From the IMG/VR virus record IMGVR_UViG_2778261227_000014: a DNA stretch of 35,370 bases; one strand, 5' to 3'. The notes beneath the pieces were generated by a model. That model ran no database searches. It had not been told where the DNA came from and was given only the letters and a program-made list of their open reading frames with translations. Source of the stretch: a virus. Lineage: Duplodnaviria > Heunggongvirae > Uroviricota > Caudoviricetes. A program made the position numbers and the translations under genes. Each line of letters opens with the position of its first letter. Position 1 is the first letter of the stretch. Shown here piece after piece: positions 742 through 14,556 of this stretch.

Positions 742-1140
742 TCAGATTCCCTCCCAAACTATATATCCTTTATCTCTTGCCCAACGAACAACTGTGTGAG
801 CTGTATATGTGGATGTGAAGCCGCAATAAGAACATGACACTTCATACCGGAAATTGTAGATGCTAATGGGGCCGTTATCCTTACGTATGGGAGTGACATA
901 TTCCCAATCTTTTGAACCATCATAATCATCAAGTTCATGATCAGTGCCGTGAACAACCGTATGTGGAACAAATAGATCTGGGCGTCCACACGAGAGACAA
1001 GAGGTTTTAGCACCTCTATCTGTGAGAAATTGAATAAATAATTTGGGCGTAATTTTCTGCAAGGCCTGCACATGCTCACGTTCCTTATCATTAAGAGGCC
1101 TGCCAAGATATAGAAAATCATCAAATTTAAGAGGCTTCAT
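742..1140 (-). CDS. Cys-rich (CxxC...CxxC) hypothetical protein, possible zinc-ribbon
   Basis: ORF with ATG at 1140 preceded by GGAG 9-12 nt upstream; the track start at 1155 is TTG. Overlaps the integrase 3' end by 14 nt. Contains CLSCG and CSYCG motifs. Confidence 0.5.
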   Translation of the reverse strand: MKPLKFDDFLYLGRPLNDKEREHVQALQKITPKLFIQFLTDRGAKTSCLSCGRPDLFVPHTVVHGTDHELDDYDGSKDWEYVTPIRKDNGPISIYNFRYEVSCSYCGFTSTYTAHTVVRWARDKGYIVWEGI

Positions 1141-2119
1141 ATACGGCTTCTCCAAGAGGATTAAATTTCACCGCATCCTGCAAGTAATCCGGCGCAAGAT
1201 GGGCATAAATCATCGTTGTCTGAATCTTTGCGTGCCCCAGAATTTTCTGGAGCGTCAGAATATTGCCGCCGTTCATCATGAAATGACTGGCGAAGGTGTG
1301 GCGCAGCGCATGAACAGCCTGGCCGTCAGGAACATCAGGTGCGACCGTTTTGATGACATCGCGAACCAATGAATAATCCAGCGTCGGAAACACCAGTTTC
1401 CCGCCCCGTTTTTTGATCTTTTCAAACAGGCTTTCAGAAATAGGAACGGTACGGTTTTTGCTGTTCTTCGTTTTTGAAAAAGTGATTCGACAATGAAGAA
1501 CGCGGCGCTGCTCCAGTGCCGCTACCTCGCCCCATCGCGCCCCGGTCGATAAAAGGATTTCGACAGCCAGCCGCTCATCGGGATTTTCAGCCAGTGCATC
1601 CAGCAACTGAACACATTCAGACTTACTCAGATATCCCATTTCGCGTTCGTTAACCTTCATTCCTTTCAGGCCTTGAATGGGGTTATCGTTAAGAAAATGG
1701 CCGGATGAGATGAGTGCGGTAAACATCGCGCTTAACGCCCCAATCTCTCGATTTATGGTGCTGGGCTGTATCCCCTGCTCTATCCTGGACACACGTAGCT
1801 CGGTGAGCATCGTTGTATTAAGTTTATGCACGCACGGGTCATCCATTGCCTCACTCAAGCGCAGCAATTTAAGGCGCGTGTTATGCCCTGACTTCATTAG
1901 CTGGCCGTGGTATTTCCACCACAAGTCAATAAGCACTGACAGCGGACGGCGATCAATGGAGTTTCCTTTCCACTCATTGTTATGCAGTTGTGCCAGCACC
2001 CACCGCTCATATAAAACTGCATCTGATTTCGTTTTAAATTTTTTTCGAATGCGTTTGCCTTTACGCCCCTCTGGGCGCATGTCAAGAAGATACCCTCCCG
2101 GAATTGATTTTATGCTCAT
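1127..2119 (-). CDS. int: Tyrosine recombinase, P2-type integrase
   Basis: 330 aa from ATG at 2119 (the track start at 2269 is an upstream in-frame extension). N-terminus MSIKSIPGGYLLDMRPEGRKGKRIRKKF resembles P2 Int; catalytic region contains ARWGE, HALRHTFASHF and LGHAKIQTTMIYAHL, the R...HxxR...Y signature of the family. Confidence 0.9.
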   Translation of the reverse strand: MSIKSIPGGYLLDMRPEGRKGKRIRKKFKTKSDAVLYERWVLAQLHNNEWKGNSIDRRPLSVLIDLWWKYHGQLMKSGHNTRLKLLRLSEAMDDPCVHKLNTTMLTELRVSRIEQGIQPSTINREIGALSAMFTALISSGHFLNDNPIQGLKGMKVNEREMGYLSKSECVQLLDALAENPDERLAVEILLSTGARWGEVAALEQRRVLHCRITFSKTKNSKNRTVPISESLFEKIKKRGGKLVFPTLDYSLVRDVIKTVAPDVPDGQAVHALRHTFASHFMMNGGNILTLQKILGHAKIQTTMIYAHLAPDYLQDAVKFNPLGEAVYEAS

Positions 2120-2168
2120 TCGTGAAACCCCAGCGTTACAAGACCACCATGCCCCCAGCGCTCCATGA

Positions 2169-2477
2169 TTAGCCGGGCTGTGTGCCAGTCTTGCGGGGTT
2201 TTTGAGAAGGCGATGTGCTTTTTGGCCCATCAGGGGAGAGAGACGGACTGATCTGCCCAGCAGCCTCATTTGTTTTTCCCGTCATAAGCCAATTCATGTA
2301 CTTAAAAAAGCGAGGGTGATTAACAATCTTGATAAGCACTTCGCCCCCTATGTTTTCAATCCGCCCCGTTTCATAACGACGCAAAGTGCCGATAGGCACA
2401 TCAATCAGGCCGCAAAATTCTTCGCGCGTTAAATCCTCTGATTCACGAATCACTCTAATTTTTTCACCGATAAGCAT
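2169..2477 (-). CDS. C: Immunity repressor, P2 C-like HTH protein
   Basis: About 102 aa from ATG at 2477. IRVIRESEDLTREEFCGLIDVPIGTLRRYETGR is a helix-turn-helix; overall pattern parallels P2 C. Divergent from the cox-like gene. Confidence 0.8.
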   Translation of the reverse strand: MLIGEKIRVIRESEDLTREEFCGLIDVPIGTLRRYETGRIENIGGEVLIKIVNHPRFFKYMNWLMTGKTNEAAGQISPSLSPDGPKSTSPSQKPRKTGTQPG

Positions 2478-2573
2478 TGACAGTGTTCCTATAAGTACAC
2501 TAAGCTTGCGCACAAGGTGTACTTATAAGTACACCAAGTCACAAACAACCACAGATAGCGCAGGTTATCACAC
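2478..2573. promoter_or_regulatory. Lysis/lysogeny switch region: divergent promoters and operator repeats
   Basis: Perfect 18-bp palindrome gtgtacttataagtacac at 2517-2534, and a direct copy of tataagtacac at 2490-2500 and 2524-2534, between the divergent C and cox-like genes. Confidence 0.6.
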
Positions 2574-6453: not shown

Positions 6454-9276
6454 ATGACGGCAGAGTACATCAGGGACTGGCAACAACCGCGCCACGCAGT
6501 GGGGTGTGAAGGAACGGGGATCCCCGCTCCTGAATCCGCGCTTTCCTCCTGGCTGGATGCCTACCGGGCTGAGAACGAGCGCCGCCAGGAAATGGCTGAT
6601 GCGGCGTTCTCCGCCACACCGCTGGGCAACCTGATTAATAAAAGCCTGGACGCACAGGAAAAACAGGACAAAACCATCACACTGGCAGGAGACGCCAGAA
6701 AACAGGCACGCGGCGCGGTGGATGAAGCCATGGCCTCGCTGCGCCTGCTGCCGTCCTATCTGCGCGATCCGCTTATTCGCCACCTCTCCTTCCTGCGCAA
6801 AAAACAGGAAGCCGATCGCCGGAAAGGCAAAAAGAGCTGGCAGGCGGAACGCTATGCACGCGGACCCCTGCGCAAAATATTCGAACGTCTGGATAGCACT
6901 GACGGACGCTGGCTGACACCGGGTTATCGCTCCCTTGCCGGACGCGAACGCCTGGACGATTTGCTTTACCTGCCGCAGCTCAACAAACACCAGATACAGA
7001 CGCTGGCCACCATGACGGCGGCGATGTTCAGCAGCACCTTCGAAAAACTCTGCGATGGCTTTGGCGCGACCGATGGCGAGCTGACCATGGATGTAACCCT
7101 GAAGGCGTATCAGATGCTGGCCCGCATGGCGTTACACCTGCACGCCATGCCTCCACATTATGACGCACTGACGACAGACAAAGACCGGAGGAACGAACCG
7201 GACACGGAGCTGCTGCCGGGCGCAATCCTTCGCCTGACCTGTGCGGAATGGTGGAAACGCAAACTGTGGCTGTTACGTTGCGAGTGGAGAGAAGAACAAC
7301 TCCGCGCCGCCTGTCTGGTTTCCAGAAAAACATCACCCTATCTGAGCCAGGACGCGTTAAGCGAGTTTCGCGCACAGCGCGAGAAAACACGCGATTTCCT
7401 GAAAAGTTTCATGCTGGAAAATGAAGACGGGTTCACGATTGATCTCGAGACAGTGTATTACGCGGGAGTAAGTAACCCGGTTCACCGTAAGGCAGAAATG
7501 ATGGCCACCATGAAGGGGCTGGAACTTCTGGCCGAAGCCCGTGGCGACAAAGCGGTGTTTCTGACTGTCACCTGCCCGTCAAAATACCACGCCACAACAG
7601 AGAACGGTCATCCGAATCCCAAATGGAACGGGGCCACCATGCGCGACTCCAGCGATTACCTGGTTAACACGTTTTTTGCAGCGGTCCGCAAGAAACTGAA
7701 CCGCAACGGCCTGCGCTGGTATGGCATCCGCACGGTGGAGCCTCACCATGACGGCACCGTGCACTGGCATATGATGGTCTTTGCTCATCCGGAAGAAATC
7801 GACACCATTGTGTCCCACACCCGCGATATTGCCATTCAGGAAGATCGTCACGAGCTGGGTGATGATATTACCCCACGCTTTAAGGCAGAGTACGTCGACG
7901 GTTCGAAAGGTACGCCGACCAGCTACATCGCCACCTACATCGGAAAGAACCTGGACAGCCGCGCCGTGGGTGGCATTGACCCGAAAACAAGCAAGCCACG
8001 CGTTGATCACGAAACCGGAAAATCAATGGCCGAGAGCGTGGAACGCGCCATCGGCTGGGCGCGCCTTCACCGCGTCCGCCAGTTCCAGTTCTTTGGTATC
8101 CCCTCCCGTCAGGTATGGCGTGAACTCCGCCGCCTTGCCAGTCAGATGGCCCGCAACCCGGAAGGTCCACAACGTCTGGAAAATGACGCAATGGATGCGG
8201 TACTCGCTGCCGCTGATGCCGGGTGTTTTGCCACCTACATTGAGAAACAGGGTGGCGTACTTGTTCCACGCAAGGATTACCTGATTCGCACCGCCTACGA
8301 CCTCGCAGAAGAGCTGAACGATTACGGCGAGCAAAGCGTACAGATTTACGGGATCTGGTCGCCACAAATCGGGGAATCTTCCCGCGTGTGCACGCACCCG
8401 GATAACTGGAAGCTGGTAAGACGTAAACCGGAAGCGGAAGACAGCGCCCGCGAAAATGGTTTTGACCTTCAGGGCGGCCCTGCCGCCCCTTGGACTCGTG
8501 GCAATAACTGTCCCCGTGTACAGGAAACGGACAACAACGGGACAGAACAGCCGGAAGAACGGCCAGCACCGTGGCCGCAGCTCCCTGACGGCGTTGAAGT
8601 GAACGAATGGATGCGCTCACTGAAACGGCACGAACGCCGGGCGCTGATGCGTTCGCTTCGTGACAAACAGGCAAAAAACAGCAGTGATGAAATGCAGAGC
8701 TGGACACAGAGCCGCAAACAGCAGCGGCCTTTGCCTGATAACCACGAATTACTCGCTAAAGAATGGCGGGAGTCTGCTGAATCTCTCGGCCTGCATATCG
8801 GTGAACAGCAGATGCAGCACCTGTTACGGGGCGGCAGTCTGTACGTTGACGGCAGCATCATTGCACCGCAGGGATTTGAAATTGTACGCAAACCGGATAC
8901 CCGACCGGACAGCCGGATCACGCAGCTCTGGCAGCGCCTGAGCCGTAACCACGGCGTAAGCAGCACGGAGATCCGCCATAACCCGGTCGCCAGCTATCTG
9001 GAACAGCTGGGGGCATCAGACCCCGAAGCCGCCGCACGCCTGGCATCCACACTTCAGCAAGACCAGAACACCATGAAAACACCCGTTACCGTGCTTTCTG
9101 ACATGCTGCGCGCCATCCGCGACGCAGAGCACGCACAGAGAATCAGTGAAACCACTGAACGCGCCCGCCGCAAAGCAGACCTGCTGCGGGGTGGCCTGAC
9201 CATTGGAAACAAAAAACAGACAGAAACGGGATTCACAAATCCCGTAAATGAGCAAAAAACGCGCCGCGATATATGA
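6454..9276 (+). CDS. A: Rolling-circle replication initiator, P2 gpA-like endonuclease
   Basis: 940 aa. HUH-type metal motif GTVHWHMMVFAH and paired active-site tyrosines YIATYIGKN (Y-x3-Y), as in P2 A / phiX174 A-type initiators; position after the early genes. Overlapping - strand ORFs (7880-8707 and others) are treated as high-GC artefacts. Confidence 0.85.
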   Translation: MTAEYIRDWQQPRHAVGCEGTGIPAPESALSSWLDAYRAENERRQEMADAAFSATPLGNLINKSLDAQEKQDKTITLAGDARKQARGAVDEAMASLRLLPSYLRDPLIRHLSFLRKKQEADRRKGKKSWQAERYARGPLRKIFERLDSTDGRWLTPGYRSLAGRERLDDLLYLPQLNKHQIQTLATMTAAMFSSTFEKLCDGFGATDGELTMDVTLKAYQMLARMALHLHAMPPHYDALTTDKDRRNEPDTELLPGAILRLTCAEWWKRKLWLLRCEWREEQLRAACLVSRKTSPYLSQDALSEFRAQREKTRDFLKSFMLENEDGFTIDLETVYYAGVSNPVHRKAEMMATMKGLELLAEARGDKAVFLTVTCPSKYHATTENGHPNPKWNGATMRDSSDYLVNTFFAAVRKKLNRNGLRWYGIRTVEPHHDGTVHWHMMVFAHPEEIDTIVSHTRDIAIQEDRHELGDDITPRFKAEYVDGSKGTPTSYIATYIGKNLDSRAVGGIDPKTSKPRVDHETGKSMAESVERAIGWARLHRVRQFQFFGIPSRQVWRELRRLASQMARNPEGPQRLENDAMDAVLAAADAGCFATYIEKQGGVLVPRKDYLIRTAYDLAEELNDYGEQSVQIYGIWSPQIGESSRVCTHPDNWKLVRRKPEAEDSARENGFDLQGGPAAPWTRGNNCPRVQETDNNGTEQPEERPAPWPQLPDGVEVNEWMRSLKRHERRALMRSLRDKQAKNSSDEMQSWTQSRKQQRPLPDNHELLAKEWRESAESLGLHIGEQQMQHLLRGGSLYVDGSIIAPQGFEIVRKPDTRPDSRITQLWQRLSRNHGVSSTEIRHNPVASYLEQLGASDPEAAARLASTLQQDQNTMKTPVTVLSDMLRAIRDAEHAQRISETTERARRKADLLRGGLTIGNKKQTETGFTNPVNEQKTRRDI

Positions 9277-9352: not shown

Positions 9353-10312
9353 ATGAAAATTTGTATCGATGACGGCTCCACCAACATCAAGCTGGCATGG
9401 ACTGAGAACGGCGAACGCCGCAACGCCATCAGCCCGAACAGCTTCAAGTCGGAATGGTCTGCGCCGTTCGGTGGCACGCAGCCCGCGAACTACATGCTTG
9501 ATGGCGTGCGCTATGGTTTTGATCCGGTCAGCGATCGCTTTGTCCAGACGACCGACACGCAATACCAGTACAGCGATGTGAATGTCATTGCCATTCATCA
9601 CGCGCTGGTCAAATCAGGCATCACACCACAGGAAGTGGATGTGGTTGTCACCCTGCCACTGAGCGAATATTTCGACACAAACGCACAGCCGGACATGGCC
9701 AACATCAACCGCAAAAAAGCAAACGTCATGCGTCCGGTGGCGTACCAGAACGGAAAAGCATTCACTATCCGTAACGTACGGGTTATGCCTGAATCCATTC
9801 CGGCTGGTTTTAAAGCACTGGCTGACATGAGTCCGTTTGAATCCCTGCTGATTGTGGATTTAGGCGGAACCACGCTGGATGTGGCAAAGGTTCAGGGACA
9901 ACTGGCGGGTATCAGCCAGGTGTTTTGCGATCCACACGTAGGCGTTTCCCTGATGGCCGATGCCGTACTGTCGGTGATGGCCACTAACGGTATGCGCACC
10001 AGTCACCACATCGCCAATACCATTATCGAACATCGCCATGATGAAGCCTGGCTGCGCCAGCACATCCACAATGACGCGCATTACGCCAGCCTGATGGCGG
10101 TTATTCGTGAAAAGGAAGAAACACTGAAACAACGCGTGATCCGCGCGCTGGCGGTTTTTTCGGGTTACGGGCGGGTGATGGTTGTCGGTGGCGGGGCGGA
10201 GATTGTGGCACCCGCTATCCGCGAAGCCTGCGGAGTTAATGCGACTTTCATCGCGGACGGGGTGCCACAATTTGCTCTGGTTAATGGGCTGTACGCAATG
10301 AACAAGGAGTAA
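9353..10312 (+). CDS. parM: ParM/StbA-like actin-type segregation ATPase
   Basis: 319 aa; N-terminal MKICIDDGSTNIKLAW closely matches plasmid R1 ParM (MLVFIDDGSTNIKLQW, from memory); further shared blocks YSDVNVIAIHHAL, VMPESIPAG, LLIVDLGGTTLD, GVSL, FSGY, VMVVGGGAEI, LVNGLY. AGGA RBS 8 nt upstream. Confidence 0.8.
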   Translation: MKICIDDGSTNIKLAWTENGERRNAISPNSFKSEWSAPFGGTQPANYMLDGVRYGFDPVSDRFVQTTDTQYQYSDVNVIAIHHALVKSGITPQEVDVVVTLPLSEYFDTNAQPDMANINRKKANVMRPVAYQNGKAFTIRNVRVMPESIPAGFKALADMSPFESLLIVDLGGTTLDVAKVQGQLAGISQVFCDPHVGVSLMADAVLSVMATNGMRTSHHIANTIIEHRHDEAWLRQHIHNDAHYASLMAVIREKEETLKQRVIRALAVFSGYGRVMVVGGGAEIVAPAIREACGVNATFIADGVPQFALVNGLYAMNKE

Positions 10313-10316
10313 ACCA

Positions 10317-10628
10317 ATGACGACACCAACCAGAAGAATAAGTTTCTATCTGAAGCCAGCTGCCGTCAAGAACGAAGGAGAAGCATGCGCCTGGCTGGAC
10401 AGCCTTACACCAGAAGCCCGCAAAAGCGGCCAACGCGTGGCTTTTCTGGCCGGGCTGGCACTTCTGAAGACGAATCCGGCAGAGGCTTACCGACTGGCCG
10501 CATGGGCTGATGATGAGATGTTACCTGTGACACAAATCAGCTCAAAAAAGTTTGAAGCACAGTCTGCACCAGTGGCTAAGATAACCAGCCAGATGGCTGG
10601 GAATATCCGGGCGTTATTTCCTGAGTAA
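10317..10628 (+). CDS. parR: ParR/StbB-like DNA-binding adaptor protein
   Basis: 103 aa directly downstream of the parM-like gene; ISFYLKP, AFLAGLALLKTNPAEAY and IRALFPE parallel R1 ParR (IAFKLNP, AALTAGLALYRQDP, LRSLFPKE, from memory); AGGAG RBS. Confidence 0.65.
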   Translation: MTTPTRRISFYLKPAAVKNEGEACAWLDSLTPEARKSGQRVAFLAGLALLKTNPAEAYRLAAWADDEMLPVTQISSKKFEAQSAPVAKITSQMAGNIRALFPE

Positions 10629-10642
10629 AAGCATCTGCGCGA

Positions 10643-10684
10643 AAAATGCTCACGTTTATAGAGAAAATGCTCACGTTTATAGAG
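10643..10684. repeat. Perfect tandem duplication of a 21-bp unit just downstream of the parR-like gene
   Basis: aaaatgctcacgtttatagag at 10643-10663 repeated at 10664-10684. Confidence 0.7.
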
Positions 10685-10777
10685 ACAGTATCATTCCATT
10701 TGGCACACTTACTTCAATAATCGATCTGTTAAACAAATAGATTGTCTATTATCTATCGATTAAAACGATCAATTATC

Positions 10778-10806
10778 TTGACAGTAATGTGCCTTTTTGT
10801 AAGATC
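10778..10806 (+). promoter_or_regulatory. Candidate sigma70 promoter
   Basis: Perfect TTGACA at 10778-10783, 16-17 bp spacer, TAAGAT at 10800-10805; points toward the 11014 gene. Confidence 0.4.
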
Positions 10807-10856
10807 GTTCGCATTGTGAGCGACAAGATAATTGCGCGGCATTGTCCATGCAAAAC

Positions 10857-10882
10857 GCCCCAATAGCAGCAACTATTGGGGC
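10857..10882 (+). other. 10-bp-stem hairpin (possible 5'UTR structure or binding site)
   Basis: gccccaatag-cagcaa-ctattggggc, perfect inverted repeat. Confidence 0.4.
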
Positions 10883-11013
10883 GTAAAACTCGGTCGGACT
10901 CACTTAACCTGATATGCGTGCCTTCCGAAGTAAATCAAAATGTGCGTCGTATATTTTATTGCTTACACGCACCTCTGTAAAGGCACGCATATTTTTCCTA
11001 TGAGGTAAATAAA

Positions 11014-11283
11014 GTGCGGGCTAAAACAGGTATTTGCAAGAACCCTCATCGTTATAATCCAACATTTCTGTCTCTCCCTGAATATCAAGGACAAGAAGGT
11101 CGGCACAAATGCGCTGCCTGTGCTTTTGAGCTAGGCATAAAAGATGCGCTTGAAGGACGCGCTATGGCTCAGAATGATTTAGTTTTAGCTAACATTCCGT
11201 TTAGCCAGGCTGGAACTGTAAGGCACAGAGATGCCTATGAAGCATATGTTCGTGGTTGGCGATTAATACACAGCAACAATTGA
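11014..11283 (+). CDS. Small hypothetical protein with Cys/His cluster
   Basis: 89 aa from GTG at 11014 with GAGG 8 nt upstream; CKNPHRYNP...HKCAACAF; flanked by its own promoter-like region and a downstream terminator. Confidence 0.45.
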   Translation: MRAKTGICKNPHRYNPTFLSLPEYQGQEGRHKCAACAFELGIKDALEGRAMAQNDLVLANIPFSQAGTVRHRDAYEAYVRGWRLIHSNN

Positions 11284-11291
11284 TACTTTTG

Positions 11292-11316
11292 AAGCGCCGA
11301 TAAGGCGCTTTTTTTG
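11292..11316 (+). terminator. Rho-independent terminator
   Basis: agcgcc-gataa-ggcgct hairpin followed by T7 directly after the 11283 stop. Confidence 0.7.
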
Positions 11317-11707
11317 TTTGCACGATAGTGCACAAGTTTGCACAATTTTTTTGAACGACTTTTTGTACTTCCGGCCCGCGTGGTGGCTGGATCCGTCAAG
11401 GATCCGTACGTGCACAAAAAAACGCGTTTTTTCTGCGCGCAGGTGACGGGGGAACAGCCCGCGTTTCAGGGGGTAAATAGCATTCCCTGAACGATGTCGC
11501 AGAGATACAACAGAATGGCTGTATTTCTCACGCTGAGCGTGAAAAAGACGTGAGGGCTTTTGATTTAGGTAAGGCCGTCAAAATCGCACTGAGACGGCGA
11601 GAACATGCAGTCAACGCGGTGGGATTGCGTAAGAGTCTGACTGTCGATGATGGCAATCAGCAGAAAAGCATCGTGAAATTATCTGACTGATACAGGAGCT
11701 GGAGAGT

Positions 11708-11732
11708 CGGGGCATAAATTTTTTATGCCCCG
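11708..11732. other. Hairpin adjacent to the portal gene stop
   Basis: cggggcata-aattttt-tatgccccg at 11708-11732, 27 bp beyond the Q stop; no clean T-run on either side. Confidence 0.35.
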
Positions 11733-11758
11733 GCGAAGCAGCAGACAAGCGAAGCGCG

Positions 11759-12805
11759 TCAGGATGTGGGCTGGGTGTCTAACAGTGCGTAAGGGTTAAA
11801 GCGGATCACCTCTTCGCCAAGCCAGTCATTGATGTGCTTCATGGCCTCCATGACAGGCATCAGCTCGTTAATTGCGTAAACCCGCGCGGCCTTCTCCACA
11901 TCGCCAAACGCACTTTTTTCGCCCGGCATCGCCCCCATCAGTTGCGGCGGAACGCGGTGCGCAGCCAGCACATCATCACGGGATGCCGCCTTAACATTCA
12001 TGAACTCATCCTTTGCGGTGATCTGCTGGAACGGCAAAATTTGCACCCCCTCTTTGCCCCCGTTGGGCGCATGAATGAGCACGTTTTTAAATGCACCACC
12101 ACCACGCGCACCCTGTAGCGTTTCCTTCAGGGAGTCCATGCTTTCGCGGTTTACCTGCGCTGCACCGATGTAGATGATGCACCCGGCGTGGGAGCCGTTG
12201 TCGTAATACAGTTTTCTGAACATGTCCGCCGAATGAGACAGGCTGGCCGAGAGTAATGCGCCGAGATATTCCGGCATGCCGTAGATTTCCTGGTTAATGT
12301 CAGGATTCATCAGGTGGCACACTTTGCCAGGGCGAAACTGAAACGCGTCCTTGCCATCCTGCACATACCACCATGATTCAAGATCGCTTCCGCGTCGCAT
12401 GTATTTCGCCAGGGCGTGCCGTAATTTAAGTGGTTCGCCGAGCATATTGCTTCGAAGCTCAAGGAATGCGTTACCGAACACAAACCAGTCCAGCGCCAGC
12501 GCCGAGAAATCCTGCCGGGAAAGCAGCGGATGCGGAATATAGCAGCCGAGCAATACATTACGCTTAAAGTAAAGCGCAGACTGATGCCAGGACGTTTGCC
12601 GGGCAGCTCTTGCCAGACCGTACCAGTCCACCGGGGTTTCATACCACCGACCGTTATCAGCACAGTACATATTGTCCAGCAGGTCATGCCCGGTCAGGCG
12701 GTAAGGACCATCAAATGTGAATGCACTGAGCGACGATTCTTTCCTGAGCGCATCAGCGAGATCAATGCGTGAACTCATGCGCACTTTTTTATTTTTTCTG
12801 CTCAT
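11759..12805 (-). CDS. Q: Portal protein, P2 gpQ-like
   Basis: 348 aa, ATG at 12805 overlapping the P stop (ATGA); size and position match P2 Q, leftward and adjacent to terminase. Confidence 0.85.
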   Translation of the reverse strand: MSRKNKKVRMSSRIDLADALRKESSLSAFTFDGPYRLTGHDLLDNMYCADNGRWYETPVDWYGLARAARQTSWHQSALYFKRNVLLGCYIPHPLLSRQDFSALALDWFVFGNAFLELRSNMLGEPLKLRHALAKYMRRGSDLESWWYVQDGKDAFQFRPGKVCHLMNPDINQEIYGMPEYLGALLSASLSHSADMFRKLYYDNGSHAGCIIYIGAAQVNRESMDSLKETLQGARGGGAFKNVLIHAPNGGKEGVQILPFQQITAKDEFMNVKAASRDDVLAAHRVPPQLMGAMPGEKSAFGDVEKAARVYAINELMPVMEAMKHINDWLGEEVIRFNPYALLDTQPTS

Positions 12806-14556
12806 CAGAACTCCATAACCGTGAAACGCTCGTTTTCTCCTTCGCCGCCAATTGGTTCGTTAATGACAGCAAGCATGGTTGCCCACGCAAGGTCGCCGTG
12901 GCTGATCCCCCTCGCGCGATCCGTTTCGTAAGTGATAAAGCCGCCCGGTGTTTTCACCTTACGCACGGCGTTAAAGGCCGCGACCAGCTCGCGTTCGGCG
13001 CGATCGTATTCCCACCGCCCGGCACGCATTATTTGCAGCATTTTCAGTACCAGCGACCGTTTTGATGACAGCGTGAAGGTGTACGGAATAGCGGCAGGGA
13101 AAAACCGTTTCACTATCTGATAAACAGCCTCCCCGTTCCCGCCCGTCACATCAATGCCGATGTGTTCCACGTTGTAGCGACACGTGAACTCTTCAATGAC
13201 TCTGGCCTGTTCTTCAAACTCCAGCCCCTGAACGCGTCGCGTCTCCACCGTTCGAAAACGGCCACCAGGAACAGACGGAGGAACCACCACGGACACAGCG
13301 CCGCTGTCGCCGTTGCCACTGCTGCCGTTTGCGTCATACCCAATCCATACCGGACGATTCCCCATCGGGCGGGGAGCAAAAGGTTTCCAGTCTTTCCAGT
13401 CGTCGTATCCGTCAACGCCGCAGCCAATCAGGATATTCAGGTTAAATGCCGATTCCCCTTCGCGGACAAACTCACACATATAGAGATTGAGGAACTCGTC
13501 TTCGGTGTTTTCATCACGAATTTCATCAATATCGGTGTGTTTCCAGCCGTGATTAACCACATCTTCCAGCGTGACAATTTGCCGCCACGTCCGGTCGGGG
13601 CAGATAAGCCCGTTATGCAGCGTTTTCCAGTCCACAGAAAAACGCTGGCGTTTATGCGCGGCCTTTTTCTCGTTCCAGCGGTCGCCGTTCCAGTAGACGT
13701 ATGCCTCGTGCGTTTCGGTTGATGGCGTGGAGAAGTAGGTGCGTCGCAGCCCGCTGAGGGTTGCCATAGCGCCAGCCACCTTGCGCAGTTCAGCAAAGCG
13801 ACTGACCCAGAAAAATTCATCAAAATAAAAATTGCCTGTGTAGGACTGTGCCGTCGCAGCAGAAGTACCGAGAAAATGCAGCTCTGCGCCGTTGGAGAGG
13901 ATGATTTTATCGCCCCCTTTCAGCTCCACATCAACTTCAGCCGCGGCCTTCTGAATAATGCTTTTAAACTGGAACGCCTGACGACGCGACGCAGACAAAA
14001 AAATCTGGTTACGCTGGTAAGGTTGCGCCACATCGTCACGCAGCGCCATCAGCAGAGCTTCCTGTGCAAAATACCAGGTCGCCCCAATCTGTCGGGATTT
14101 CAGGATCATCCTGTTACGTATCCCGGCTTCCCTGCAAAGGGTCAGGGAGTCAAACCAGCCCCGCTGATGCCACTCCAGCCTGCTGATGATTTTTTCCCGC
14201 AGTGCGGCAATCTGCTCCGGCGTGAAATGATTTTTGAGTTTTTTCGCCCGGCCTTTCTTTCCTGCGGCCGTCGCATCCGGCTGGCCATCATGCAGTTTTT
14301 TAAGCTGCCGGGTCAGCAGGTCTATTTCCTTAAAGTCACCGCCTGTTTTATTCTGTTTTTCAGTAAGCTGGATGAGGCGCGCATCGATGGACTGCGTGAC
14401 ACGCTGCACGGGTGGCGTTTCATCCCACTGGTCGCGTTTTTTCCACGCATAAATCGTGTTCGGGTTTATTCCCATCAGACGTGATATTTCTGCGGGCGGA
14501 TAACCCTGCCAGTAAAGTTGTCGCGCACGCTTGCGCACAAAAGCGTCCTGAATCAT
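12805..14556 (-). CDS. P: Terminase large (ATPase) subunit, P2 gpP-like
   Basis: 583 aa; GGGGGA RBS before ATG at 14556; N-terminal HTH-like region (YWQGYPPAEISRLMGINPNTIYAWKKR) and size match P2 P. Internal + ORFs 13162-13722 and 13876-14484 judged spurious. Confidence 0.9.
   Translation of the reverse strand: MIQDAFVRKRARQLYWQGYPPAEISRLMGINPNTIYAWKKRDQWDETPPVQRVTQSIDARLIQLTEKQNKTGGDFKEIDLLTRQLKKLHDGQPDATAAGKKGRAKKLKNHFTPEQIAALREKIISRLEWHQRGWFDSLTLCREAGIRNRMILKSRQIGATWYFAQEALLMALRDDVAQPYQRNQIFLSASRRQAFQFKSIIQKAAAEVDVELKGGDKIILSNGAELHFLGTSAATAQSYTGNFYFDEFFWVSRFAELRKVAGAMATLSGLRRTYFSTPSTETHEAYVYWNGDRWNEKKAAHKRQRFSVDWKTLHNGLICPDRTWRQIVTLEDVVNHGWKHTDIDEIRDENTEDEFLNLYMCEFVREGESAFNLNILIGCGVDGYDDWKDWKPFAPRPMGNRPVWIGYDANGSSGNGDSGAVSVVVPPSVPGGRFRTVETRRVQGLEFEEQARVIEEFTCRYNVEHIGIDVTGGNGEAVYQIVKRFFPAAIPYTFTLSSKRSLVLKMLQIMRAGRWEYDRAERELVAAFNAVRKVKTPGGFITYETDRARGISHGDLAWATMLAVINEPIGGEGENERFTVMEF

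Follow-up and report, generated by a model that had tools for sequence, protein, structure and literature searches.

The window analysed here is a 35,370-nucleotide (nt) stretch of DNA, IMG/VR virus record IMGVR_UViG_2778261227_000014, which is a P88-like (Xuanwuvirus, Peduoviridae) Escherichia coli prophage. Flanked by gpA, ParM and StbB on one side and by the portal gene gpQ on the other, it carries a small gene at 11014–11283 whose 89-amino-acid (aa) product has a conserved Cys-His-Cys-Cys (CHCC) set of zinc-type ligands, and which we refer to as the zinc protein. This open reading frame (ORF) is a genuine prophage cargo gene. It starts with GTG, has a Shine-Dalgarno (SD) sequence, GAGG, at 11002–11005, 8 nt before the start codon, and is followed by an intrinsic terminator whose counterpart comes after the stop in 32 of 34 diverged relatives, so that the ORF with its own terminator, as described in an initial annotation of this DNA, is confirmed. 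The features of the cassette, including its sense 5′ untranslated region (UTR) or leader, are as follows.

10707–10810, plus strand: conserved promoter/operator block, with GATC at 10723–10726, 10767–10770 and 10803–10806
10778–10805, plus strand: sense sigma-70-type promoter, TTGACA-16-TAAGAT (consensus scan, 10/12 matches)
10850–10946, minus strand: predicted cis-antisense RNA of ~95 nt with inferred ends, complementary to the central part of the sense 5′ UTR
10855–10884, leader: hairpin A, a 12-bp perfect G+C-rich stem (inverted repeat I2)
10912–10997, plus strand: hairpin B, a 13-bp perfect inverted repeat (I1; arms 10912–10924 and 10980–10992) followed by TTTTT
10953–10981, minus strand: antisense sigma-70-type promoter, TTTACA-17-TAAAAT (consensus scan, 10/12), directed leftward into the leader
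10971–11006, plus strand: local fold in which the anti-SD sequence ACCTC (10971–10975) pairs with the SD sequence GAGGT (11002–11006)
11014–11283, plus strand: coding sequence (CDS) of the 89-aa CHCC zinc protein, GTG start, TGA stop at 11281–11283
11291–11316, plus strand: intrinsic terminator, an 8-bp stem (11291–11311) with five G-C pairs and a T7 run to 11316

On sequence evidence, the zinc protein belongs to a widespread family of CHCC zinc proteins of ~85 residues that is undescribed in Pfam, NCBIfam, PADLOC, Rfam, PDB and the searchable literature. The window protein itself has no family in Pfam, NCBIfam or PADLOC (Pfam and PADLOC at E ≤ 1; 0 families in PADLOC-DB 2.0), and no helix-turn-helix (HTH) family in Pfam at the same threshold, and in Pfam and PDB it has no sequence or fold match to the described zinc-finger families (Ogr/Delta, zinc ribbons, treble clef). 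In PHROGs it falls into phrog_3941, of unknown function (E = 6.3e-49; residues 4–89 on profile positions 1–86 of 86). A word-indexed search recovered near-identical copies only; when 1.8 billion representatives were searched exhaustively with HMMER, 172 relatives emerged, and a profile search found 1,598 homologous clusters, all of them unnamed and lacking Pfam domains. The relatives range across Proteobacteria, Bacteroidota, Firmicutes, Spirochaetes, Myxococcota, Actinobacteria and others. A search for remote homology, which the initial annotation had proposed as a check, yields phrog_3941 and these clusters but no described family. Literature searches turned up no mention of WP_001594304 or phrog_3941, nor of any zinc accessory protein in DpnII systems.

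The Cys/His cluster that had been picked out in the initial annotation comprises C8, H12, H31, C33 and C36, which are invariant or nearly so in alignments of 45 and 121 homologues and therefore form a conserved metal site rather than a chance pattern; four of these (C8, H12, C33 and C36) make up a conserved ligand set of the kind that characterises zinc fingers. In the same alignments Q25, R30, G41, S64, Q65, R70, H71 and G81 are likewise invariant or nearly so. The protein is a tandem duplication, since alignment of half profiles with hhalign matches residues 15–47 to residues 55–87 (probability 96.7%, E = 3.7e-10), and the CxxC motif is retained in the first unit alone. A single-sequence AlphaFold model was unusable (predicted local distance difference test, pLDDT, 44), and we used instead the confident AlphaFold2 model built with an alignment (pLDDT 85, predicted template modelling score 0.80), in which each unit of ~33 residues consists of a short helix, a beta-hairpin with a Q..G..RH loop and a long helix. 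In composition the chain is hydrophilic and basic, and it lacks any hydrophobic segment.

The genomic company of the family points to GATC restriction-modification. We called ORFs and clustered the neighbours at 80 genome loci recovered by a genome scan with an 8-sequence alignment, and found a D12 Dam-class methyltransferase at 40 loci, DpnII at 32 and a DpnA-like N6_N4 methyltransferase at 34. A D12, DpnII, N6_N4 or small PDDEXK_11 nuclease gene lies within 3 kb in 44 of the 80, and the D12 enzyme is identified as Dam by TIGR00571 (E = 1e-96). Gene order differs among lineages, being D12 – zinc protein – DpnII – N6_N4 in Clostridia, D12 – DpnII – x – N6_N4 – zinc protein in Bacteroidales, and zinc protein – D12 – PDDEXK_11 in Flavobacteria, and the genes of these operons are separated by gaps of 2–34 nt. 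Separate metagenomic contexts from Bacteroidota again place the zinc protein with Dam methyltransferases, beside a DUF6996/6997/7226 protein.

The family is also fused to nucleases. Among 49 family representatives of at least 200 aa that were scanned for fused domains, NOV_C occurs in 25, HNH in 9, HNH_2 in 5, DGQHR/DndB in 3, and WYL and HEPN in one each, so that NOV_C or HNH-type nuclease fusions account for 39 of the 49. The N-terminus of the nuclease fusions is made of two zinc-bearing copies of the unit. A D12 methyltransferase, DpnII or a MutH-family gene lies adjacent to such fusions, and two of them sit beside a D12 and N6_N4 pair with no DpnII called on the recovered contigs (2.6–5.5 kb); these two apparently fill the endonuclease slot of a DpnII-like cassette, the contigs being short enough for DpnII to lie further along. 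Every specificity-bearing partner that we found belongs to a GATC family (Dam, DpnII, MutH/Sau3AI). With PADLOC, the nuclease half alone of the fused relatives matches a candidate model, PDC-S36.

The closest relatives of the window protein (49–63% identity), in Providencia, Proteus, Enterobacter, Pantoea, Gilliamella and many viral contigs, differ in setting. This stand-alone clade has no restriction-modification neighbours and occupies moron positions beside a cI-type repressor or after lysis genes. Its hosts (Enterobacterales, Orbales, Pasteurellales) presumably all have a resident Dam, and a partner methylase would therefore come in trans. In islands of Citrobacter, Klebsiella and Buttiauxella with a P4-type integrase, a stand-alone zinc protein gene stands directly before that of a DUF4062 protein (in our locus numbering, L039 8001–9303, L057 8001–9313, and L040), and the pair may be a two-gene defence system.

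This company could also be explained if the module bound proteins rather than DNA, docking on Dam-class methyltransferases or DpnII-type endonucleases, in fusions as an adaptor and in its free form as a regulator, in which case the prophage copy would tune the host Dam or shield under-methylated phage DNA from GATC nucleases as an anti-restriction factor. The D12 methyltransferase is indeed the most constant neighbour (40 of 80 loci), the hosts of the stand-alone clade presumably have Dam, and fusion nucleases share operons with DpnII or PDDEXK_11, so that a recognition domain of their own is perhaps unneeded. However, the polar Q, R, H and S residues are invariant from Proteobacteria to Firmicutes and Bacteroidota, a pattern more in keeping with a fixed ligand such as DNA than with a protein partner that co-evolves; the partners of the module further include MutH-family, AIPR, DUF4062, WYL and HEPN proteins, and a published survey gives few anti-defence genes in P2-like hotspots. 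We regard this modulator role as quite unlikely.

Other genes recur at these loci. A ~420-aa DUF6996/DUF6997/DUF7226 protein, for which NCBIfam has no name, always follows the Dam-family methyltransferase at the Bacteroidota zinc-protein loci (L004 4704–5981; L008 8814–10076; L011 8880–10142) and is a candidate GATC endonuclease. Bacteroidales DpnII operons with the zinc protein contain a recurrent ~178-aa protein of no Pfam family between DpnII and N6_N4 (L046 6478–7011; L024 6290–6829; L055 6424–6957). One locus (L088) has the order D12 – zinc protein – AIPR, an abortive-infection protein, and the island in L011 has AbiEii and TIR_2 genes near the zinc protein. Given that restriction-modification and defence genes recur around members of the family, a role in defence or in regulation seems reasonable for the zinc protein.

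The regulatory region of the window copy is best read against its relatives. The sense promoter lies ~210 nt before the ORF and is the sole plus-strand sigma-70-like site. By consensus scan alone it is at chance level (2 sites versus 2.3 expected), and it is credible because it is conserved in a diverged allele and has equivalents in every subtype examined. That allele, in E. coli ECL27977 (L093 2781–3059), encodes 92 aa with 57% protein identity to the window protein, its coding DNA being ~58% identical. Between the two alleles the best-kept non-coding block is 10707–10810, in which all three GATC sites are unchanged, as are both promoter hexamers, and a separate hand-sliced global alignment gave ~71% identity for the promoter block versus ~58% for the CDS. 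The last GATC overlaps the −10 element (TAAGATC), another lies 8 nt upstream of the −35, and transcription is predicted to start at ~10812. Three GATC sites in 84 bp are unexceptional in the window taken alone, where similar clusters occur elsewhere, and the GATC signal becomes significant only when relatives are compared. Across 37 distinct upstream regions of diverged prophage relatives, 330 nt each, every region holds 3–5 GATC sites (145 in total versus 30.9 expected, 4.7-fold), no other of the 16 palindromic tetramers being as enriched. Every subtype has one GATC just upstream of the −35, and in the E. coli, Providencia, Enterobacter and Gilliamella types shown a further one coincides with or adjoins the −10 or the start of transcription.

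Downstream of this promoter the leader is structured and ~200 nt long. All 20 relatives compared have a hairpin at the position homologous to hairpin A, with compensatory double changes in 8 of 11 pairs (12 sequences); UUUUG comes directly after hairpin A on the minus strand, so that it would be able to terminate an antisense RNA. The promoter for such an RNA is well conserved: each of the 37 upstream regions has exactly one TTTACN-N17-TAnnnT, in the same position even though the spacers differ, ~37–44 nt upstream of the start codon in relatives, with the plus-strand motif GTAAAG invariant, and in most non-E. coli subtypes GATC is also present in its spacer and start region. The predicted antisense RNA folds with −35.8 kcal/mol (z = −3.8) and overlaps neither the SD nor the start codon. 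Hairpin B, directly before the SD (leader fold z = −3.8), looks terminator- or attenuator-like and is allele-specific, the ECL27977 allele having a deletion there. The SD itself appears buried, since in each of 20 relatives a local hairpin has an SD-like purine run as its 3′ arm, with arm sequences that vary by subtype. RNAalifold on the whole gappy leader alignment gave no global structure, local hairpins alone being supported. Neither the leader nor the predicted antisense RNA could be assigned to a known RNA family: Rfam gave only sub-threshold terminator-type matches (ctRNA_pGA1 and sar, E = 0.3–0.5) for the window and none for five relatives. A retron-like or type III toxin-antitoxin reading of the structured region upstream of the gene was rejected too, with no tandem repeats, reverse transcriptase or Rfam match.

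These results bear on two claims of the initial annotation. Its self-contained monocistronic cassette holds, the architecture of promoter and terminator being kept across diverged relatives, and promoter elements of the gene's own are present and conserved; these lie ~210 nt upstream of the ORF, however, outside the interval 11014–11316 to which the cassette had been confined, and not adjacent to the gene. Its expectation of independent expression in the lysogen fares worse, since an antisense promoter in 37 of 37 relatives, a buried SD in 20 of 20 and GATC in the promoter indicate restrained, conditional expression. Expression thus looks restrained rather than constitutive. We accordingly find it distinctly improbable that the gene works on its own in the lysogen as a constitutively expressed anti-phage or regulatory factor: the hotspot position and the self-contained cassette would suit such a factor, as would the finding that 6 of 8 randomly picked unknown-gene loci in P4 hotspots were protective (PMC13586616), but three conserved layers of negative or conditional control, the lack of an effector domain and the lack of a PADLOC match do not.

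The same control elements would be expected of a type I toxin-antitoxin-like or abortive-infection module, in which the zinc protein would be harmful, for example by coating DNA, and silenced by an unstable cis-antisense RNA and the buried SD, and in which antisense loss, through phage shut-off or loss of the element, would free translation and arrest the cell. The layout fits this picture and matches loci of the tisB/istR and symE/symR type: one small gene forms a monocistronic unit, its long leader contains a conserved antisense promoter and keeps the SD sequestered, and it has its own terminator. The moron and hotspot positions and the family's association with defence genes fit as well. 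On the other hand, the protein is hydrophilic and not a membrane peptide, the predicted antisense RNA does not reach the SD or start codon, and the 33 near-identical IMG/VR copies are all full-length, with one IS1 insertion among the 30 E. coli rows listed. Moreover, most family members are co-transcribed in restriction-modification operons, where gaps of 2–34 nt leave no room for such control, which is hard to square with an intrinsic toxin. We consider a toxin of this kind unlikely.

The explanation we favour, to which we assign a probability of about one half as a whole, is that the zinc protein is a GATC-reading zinc module captured as a gated prophage cassette; the alternatives weighed above overlap with it. 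Judged by its architecture, the module would be a DNA-recognition domain that reads GATC in a methylation-sensitive way: its two pseudo-symmetric units would match the symmetry of a palindrome, and the side chains that are invariant (Q, R, H and S) would be apt for base contacts. In E. coli and other Dam-positive gammaproteobacteria a nuclease-less reader would have been captured as an autonomous prophage cassette, with the host supplying the methylase, and its output would be gated by a GATC-bearing sigma-70 promoter, the structured leader of ~200 nt, a cis-antisense RNA and a sequestered SD. Such stacked control would mean that the protein is made conditionally and is perhaps harmful in excess; it might be made transiently or in a subpopulation, for instance when DNA is un- or hemi-methylated after entry or replication. 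The zinc protein may bind its own GATC-bearing promoter, and occlusion of under-methylated GATC DNA, regulation and exclusion are candidate roles. The proposal further supposes that the promoter responds to Dam, that the antisense RNA is made and has roughly the predicted ends, and that phage or host gains from the gene.

Several observations weigh against it. The function of the zinc protein is inferred solely from gene neighbourhood and domain fusion, and comparisons of structure and sequence linked it to no known DNA-binding fold. The window itself has no adjacent Dam-class methyltransferase or DpnII, its neighbours being StbB and the portal gene. Several operons hold both a zinc-nuclease fusion and DpnII, and the module could thus be a protein-protein adaptor to the methyltransferase or endonuclease. 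The GATC sites are a further difficulty: the cluster in the window alone is, as noted, unexceptional, a Klebsiella/Citrobacter stand-alone subclade shows no GATC enrichment upstream, and no GATC is found upstream where the zinc gene heads restriction-modification operons in Flavobacteria and Bacteroidota, so that GATC autoregulation is not general. The promoter sites could instead reflect control by the host Dam or SeqA, with no binding by the zinc protein.

A bolder form of the GATC-reading module is conceivable, though doubtful, in which the unit would be a new reader class that tells unmethylated from Dam-methylated GATC, and would operate both in unrecognised nucleases and in a prophage epigenetic switch. 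In the nucleases, two copies of the unit fused to NOV_C or HNH would be the recognition module of GATC restriction endonucleases; in the switch, the free protein would occupy GATC sites in both its sense and its antisense promoter and keep them from being methylated, which would make the system bistable with Dam. The kinds of component involved are already known, namely zinc-dependent nucleic-acid-binding modules, restriction-modification accessory genes, and Dam- or antisense-controlled genes, and there is an appreciable chance that the zinc unit is a new class of methylation-state reader. If the favoured GATC-reading explanation holds, a compact methylation-sensitive DNA module (a unit of ~35 residues) would join the known bacterial readers of N6-methyladenine, an unannotated gene in DpnII-type operons of many gut and environmental bacteria would be explained, and a new family of GATC-specific nucleases would be predicted. 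It would also give a concrete function to a recurrent 'hypothetical' cargo of P2-type hotspots, present in ~3% of complete E. coli genomes. Accessory prophage genes of this sort are usually assumed to be constitutive in lysogens, and this one has an unusually complete control stack of Dam sites, a predicted cis-antisense RNA and a buried ribosome-binding site.

The surrounding prophage genes that place the cassette are listed below.

1127–2269, minus strand: integrase
2169–2513, minus strand: repressor
6454–9276: replication endonuclease gpA
9353–10312: ParM/StbA, partition gene
10317–10628: StbB-like (Plasmid_stab_B), partition gene
11759–12805, minus strand: portal gpQ
12805–14556, minus strand: terminase

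The locus corresponds to the cos-proximal gpA–gpQ hotspot of P2-like phages (PMC9122126), as first proposed for this gene: it lies between gpA and gpQ, and the cargo of the StbB-to-portal interval differs among P88, PhiR44_2, Chuche, Shae_phiSM and strain ECL27977. DNA homology with P88-like phages that carry different cargo restarts at ~11292–11368, depending on the phage, just past the terminator, and the block common to the window and the diverged allele begins at ~10707, which delimits a mobile unit of ~10707–11316. No D12 or Dam methyltransferase was found among the 10 largest early-region ORFs scanned, and we discarded a prophage-encoded Dam as a candidate partner. The 940-aa gpA has a Phage_GPA domain over residues 179–503 only, its long C-terminal part being without assignment. 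The partition genes ParM/StbA and StbB (9353–10628) are within the hotspot, and according to a published survey about a fourth of P2-like phages have such a partition system and may persist as plasmids. Right past the StbB stop codon, at 10643–10684, are two perfect tandem 21-nt direct repeats (AAAATGCTCACGTTTATAGAG), which are missing at the equivalent place in the ECL27977 prophage and could represent iterons of a partition site or a scar left by recombination. Between the cassette and the portal gene, a block of ~450 bp (11304–11758) is kept in P88-like phages whatever their cargo; it contains only tiny ORFs and a direct repeat, GGATCCGT-CAA-GGATCCGT, at 11388–11406, and may contain cos, given the published placement of the hotspot near that site.

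Of 5,426 complete E. coli genomes, 166 (about 3%) carry the cassette at ≥99% identity, chromosomal every time, and the 33 near-identical IMG/VR copies all match at full length. In E. coli CH4793 (NZ_CM166350.1, 1996401–1997804) an IS1-family element lies within the cassette, which consequently matches in two pieces. RefSeq labels the product, where it is annotated at all, as the hypothetical protein WP_001594304.1; roughly half of the listed genomes have no annotated feature at a cassette of at least 99% identity, and the diverged allele of ECL27977 likewise lacks RefSeq annotation. Annotation-based catalogues therefore under-count the gene, which the published hotspot catalogue has 23 times as 'StbA + Plasmid_stab_B + hypothetical'.

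The cassette shares its cos-proximal locus with known P2 hotspot cargo, such as old, tin and others between gpA and gpQ (PMC9122126, PMC13586616), and lies outside the systems tested or named there. A helix motif, A..GY..G..G, is common to the zinc protein family and ribosome modulation factor (RMF, PF04957), which has neither the zinc site nor the Q..RH hairpin. Sub-threshold RMF matches occur in 10 of 45 family members (best E = 0.0016), together with one non-significant Foldseek match to a phage 'RMF'; homology was rejected, as the window protein itself has no RMF match and hhalign against E. coli RMF gave a probability of 2.9% over 15 columns. A parallel in genomic position is offered by the controller (C) proteins of Type II restriction-modification systems (C.PvuII, C.AhdI, C.Esp1396I; e.g. 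PMC3488213), which are small (~80 aa), belong to the operons of these systems and are often encoded directly upstream of the endonuclease gene. The Clostridia order D12 – zinc protein – DpnII – N6_N4 resembles this arrangement, and a regulatory role would fit. Unlike C proteins, which are Xre-type HTH dimers, the zinc protein has no HTH and consists of a duplicated hairpin-helix with a CHCC site, and the window copy is an orphan with no restriction-modification genes nearby, whereas many relatives do belong to such operons. We know of no C protein with a nuclease fusion.

For the regulatory architecture the parallels lie elsewhere. The loci tisB/istR-1, symE/symR and hok/sok are type I toxin-antitoxin systems with structured leaders, and the cassette resembles them in being a monocistronic small gene with a sequestered SD, an antisense promoter in the leader and its own terminator; it differs in that its protein is not hydrophobic and has homologues that are ordinary members of restriction-modification operons. 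IS10 transposase is controlled by the Dam-sensitive promoter pIN together with the antisense RNA-OUT, and traJ/finP of F-like plasmids is a related case. Here, too, GATC lies on promoter elements and a cis-antisense RNA is predicted against the 5′ leader, but the antisense RNA would pair with the middle of a 200-nt leader and not with the translation start, and the product is a zinc protein, not a transposase or transfer activator. As for the ligand, SeqA, MutH and the winged-helix domain of DpnI are known readers of GATC methylation state. The zinc protein has no sequence or fold similarity to any solved structure, and yet its predicted ligand would be the same as theirs, GATC with discrimination of N6-adenine methylation, and its family accompanies Dam, DpnII and MutH-family genes.

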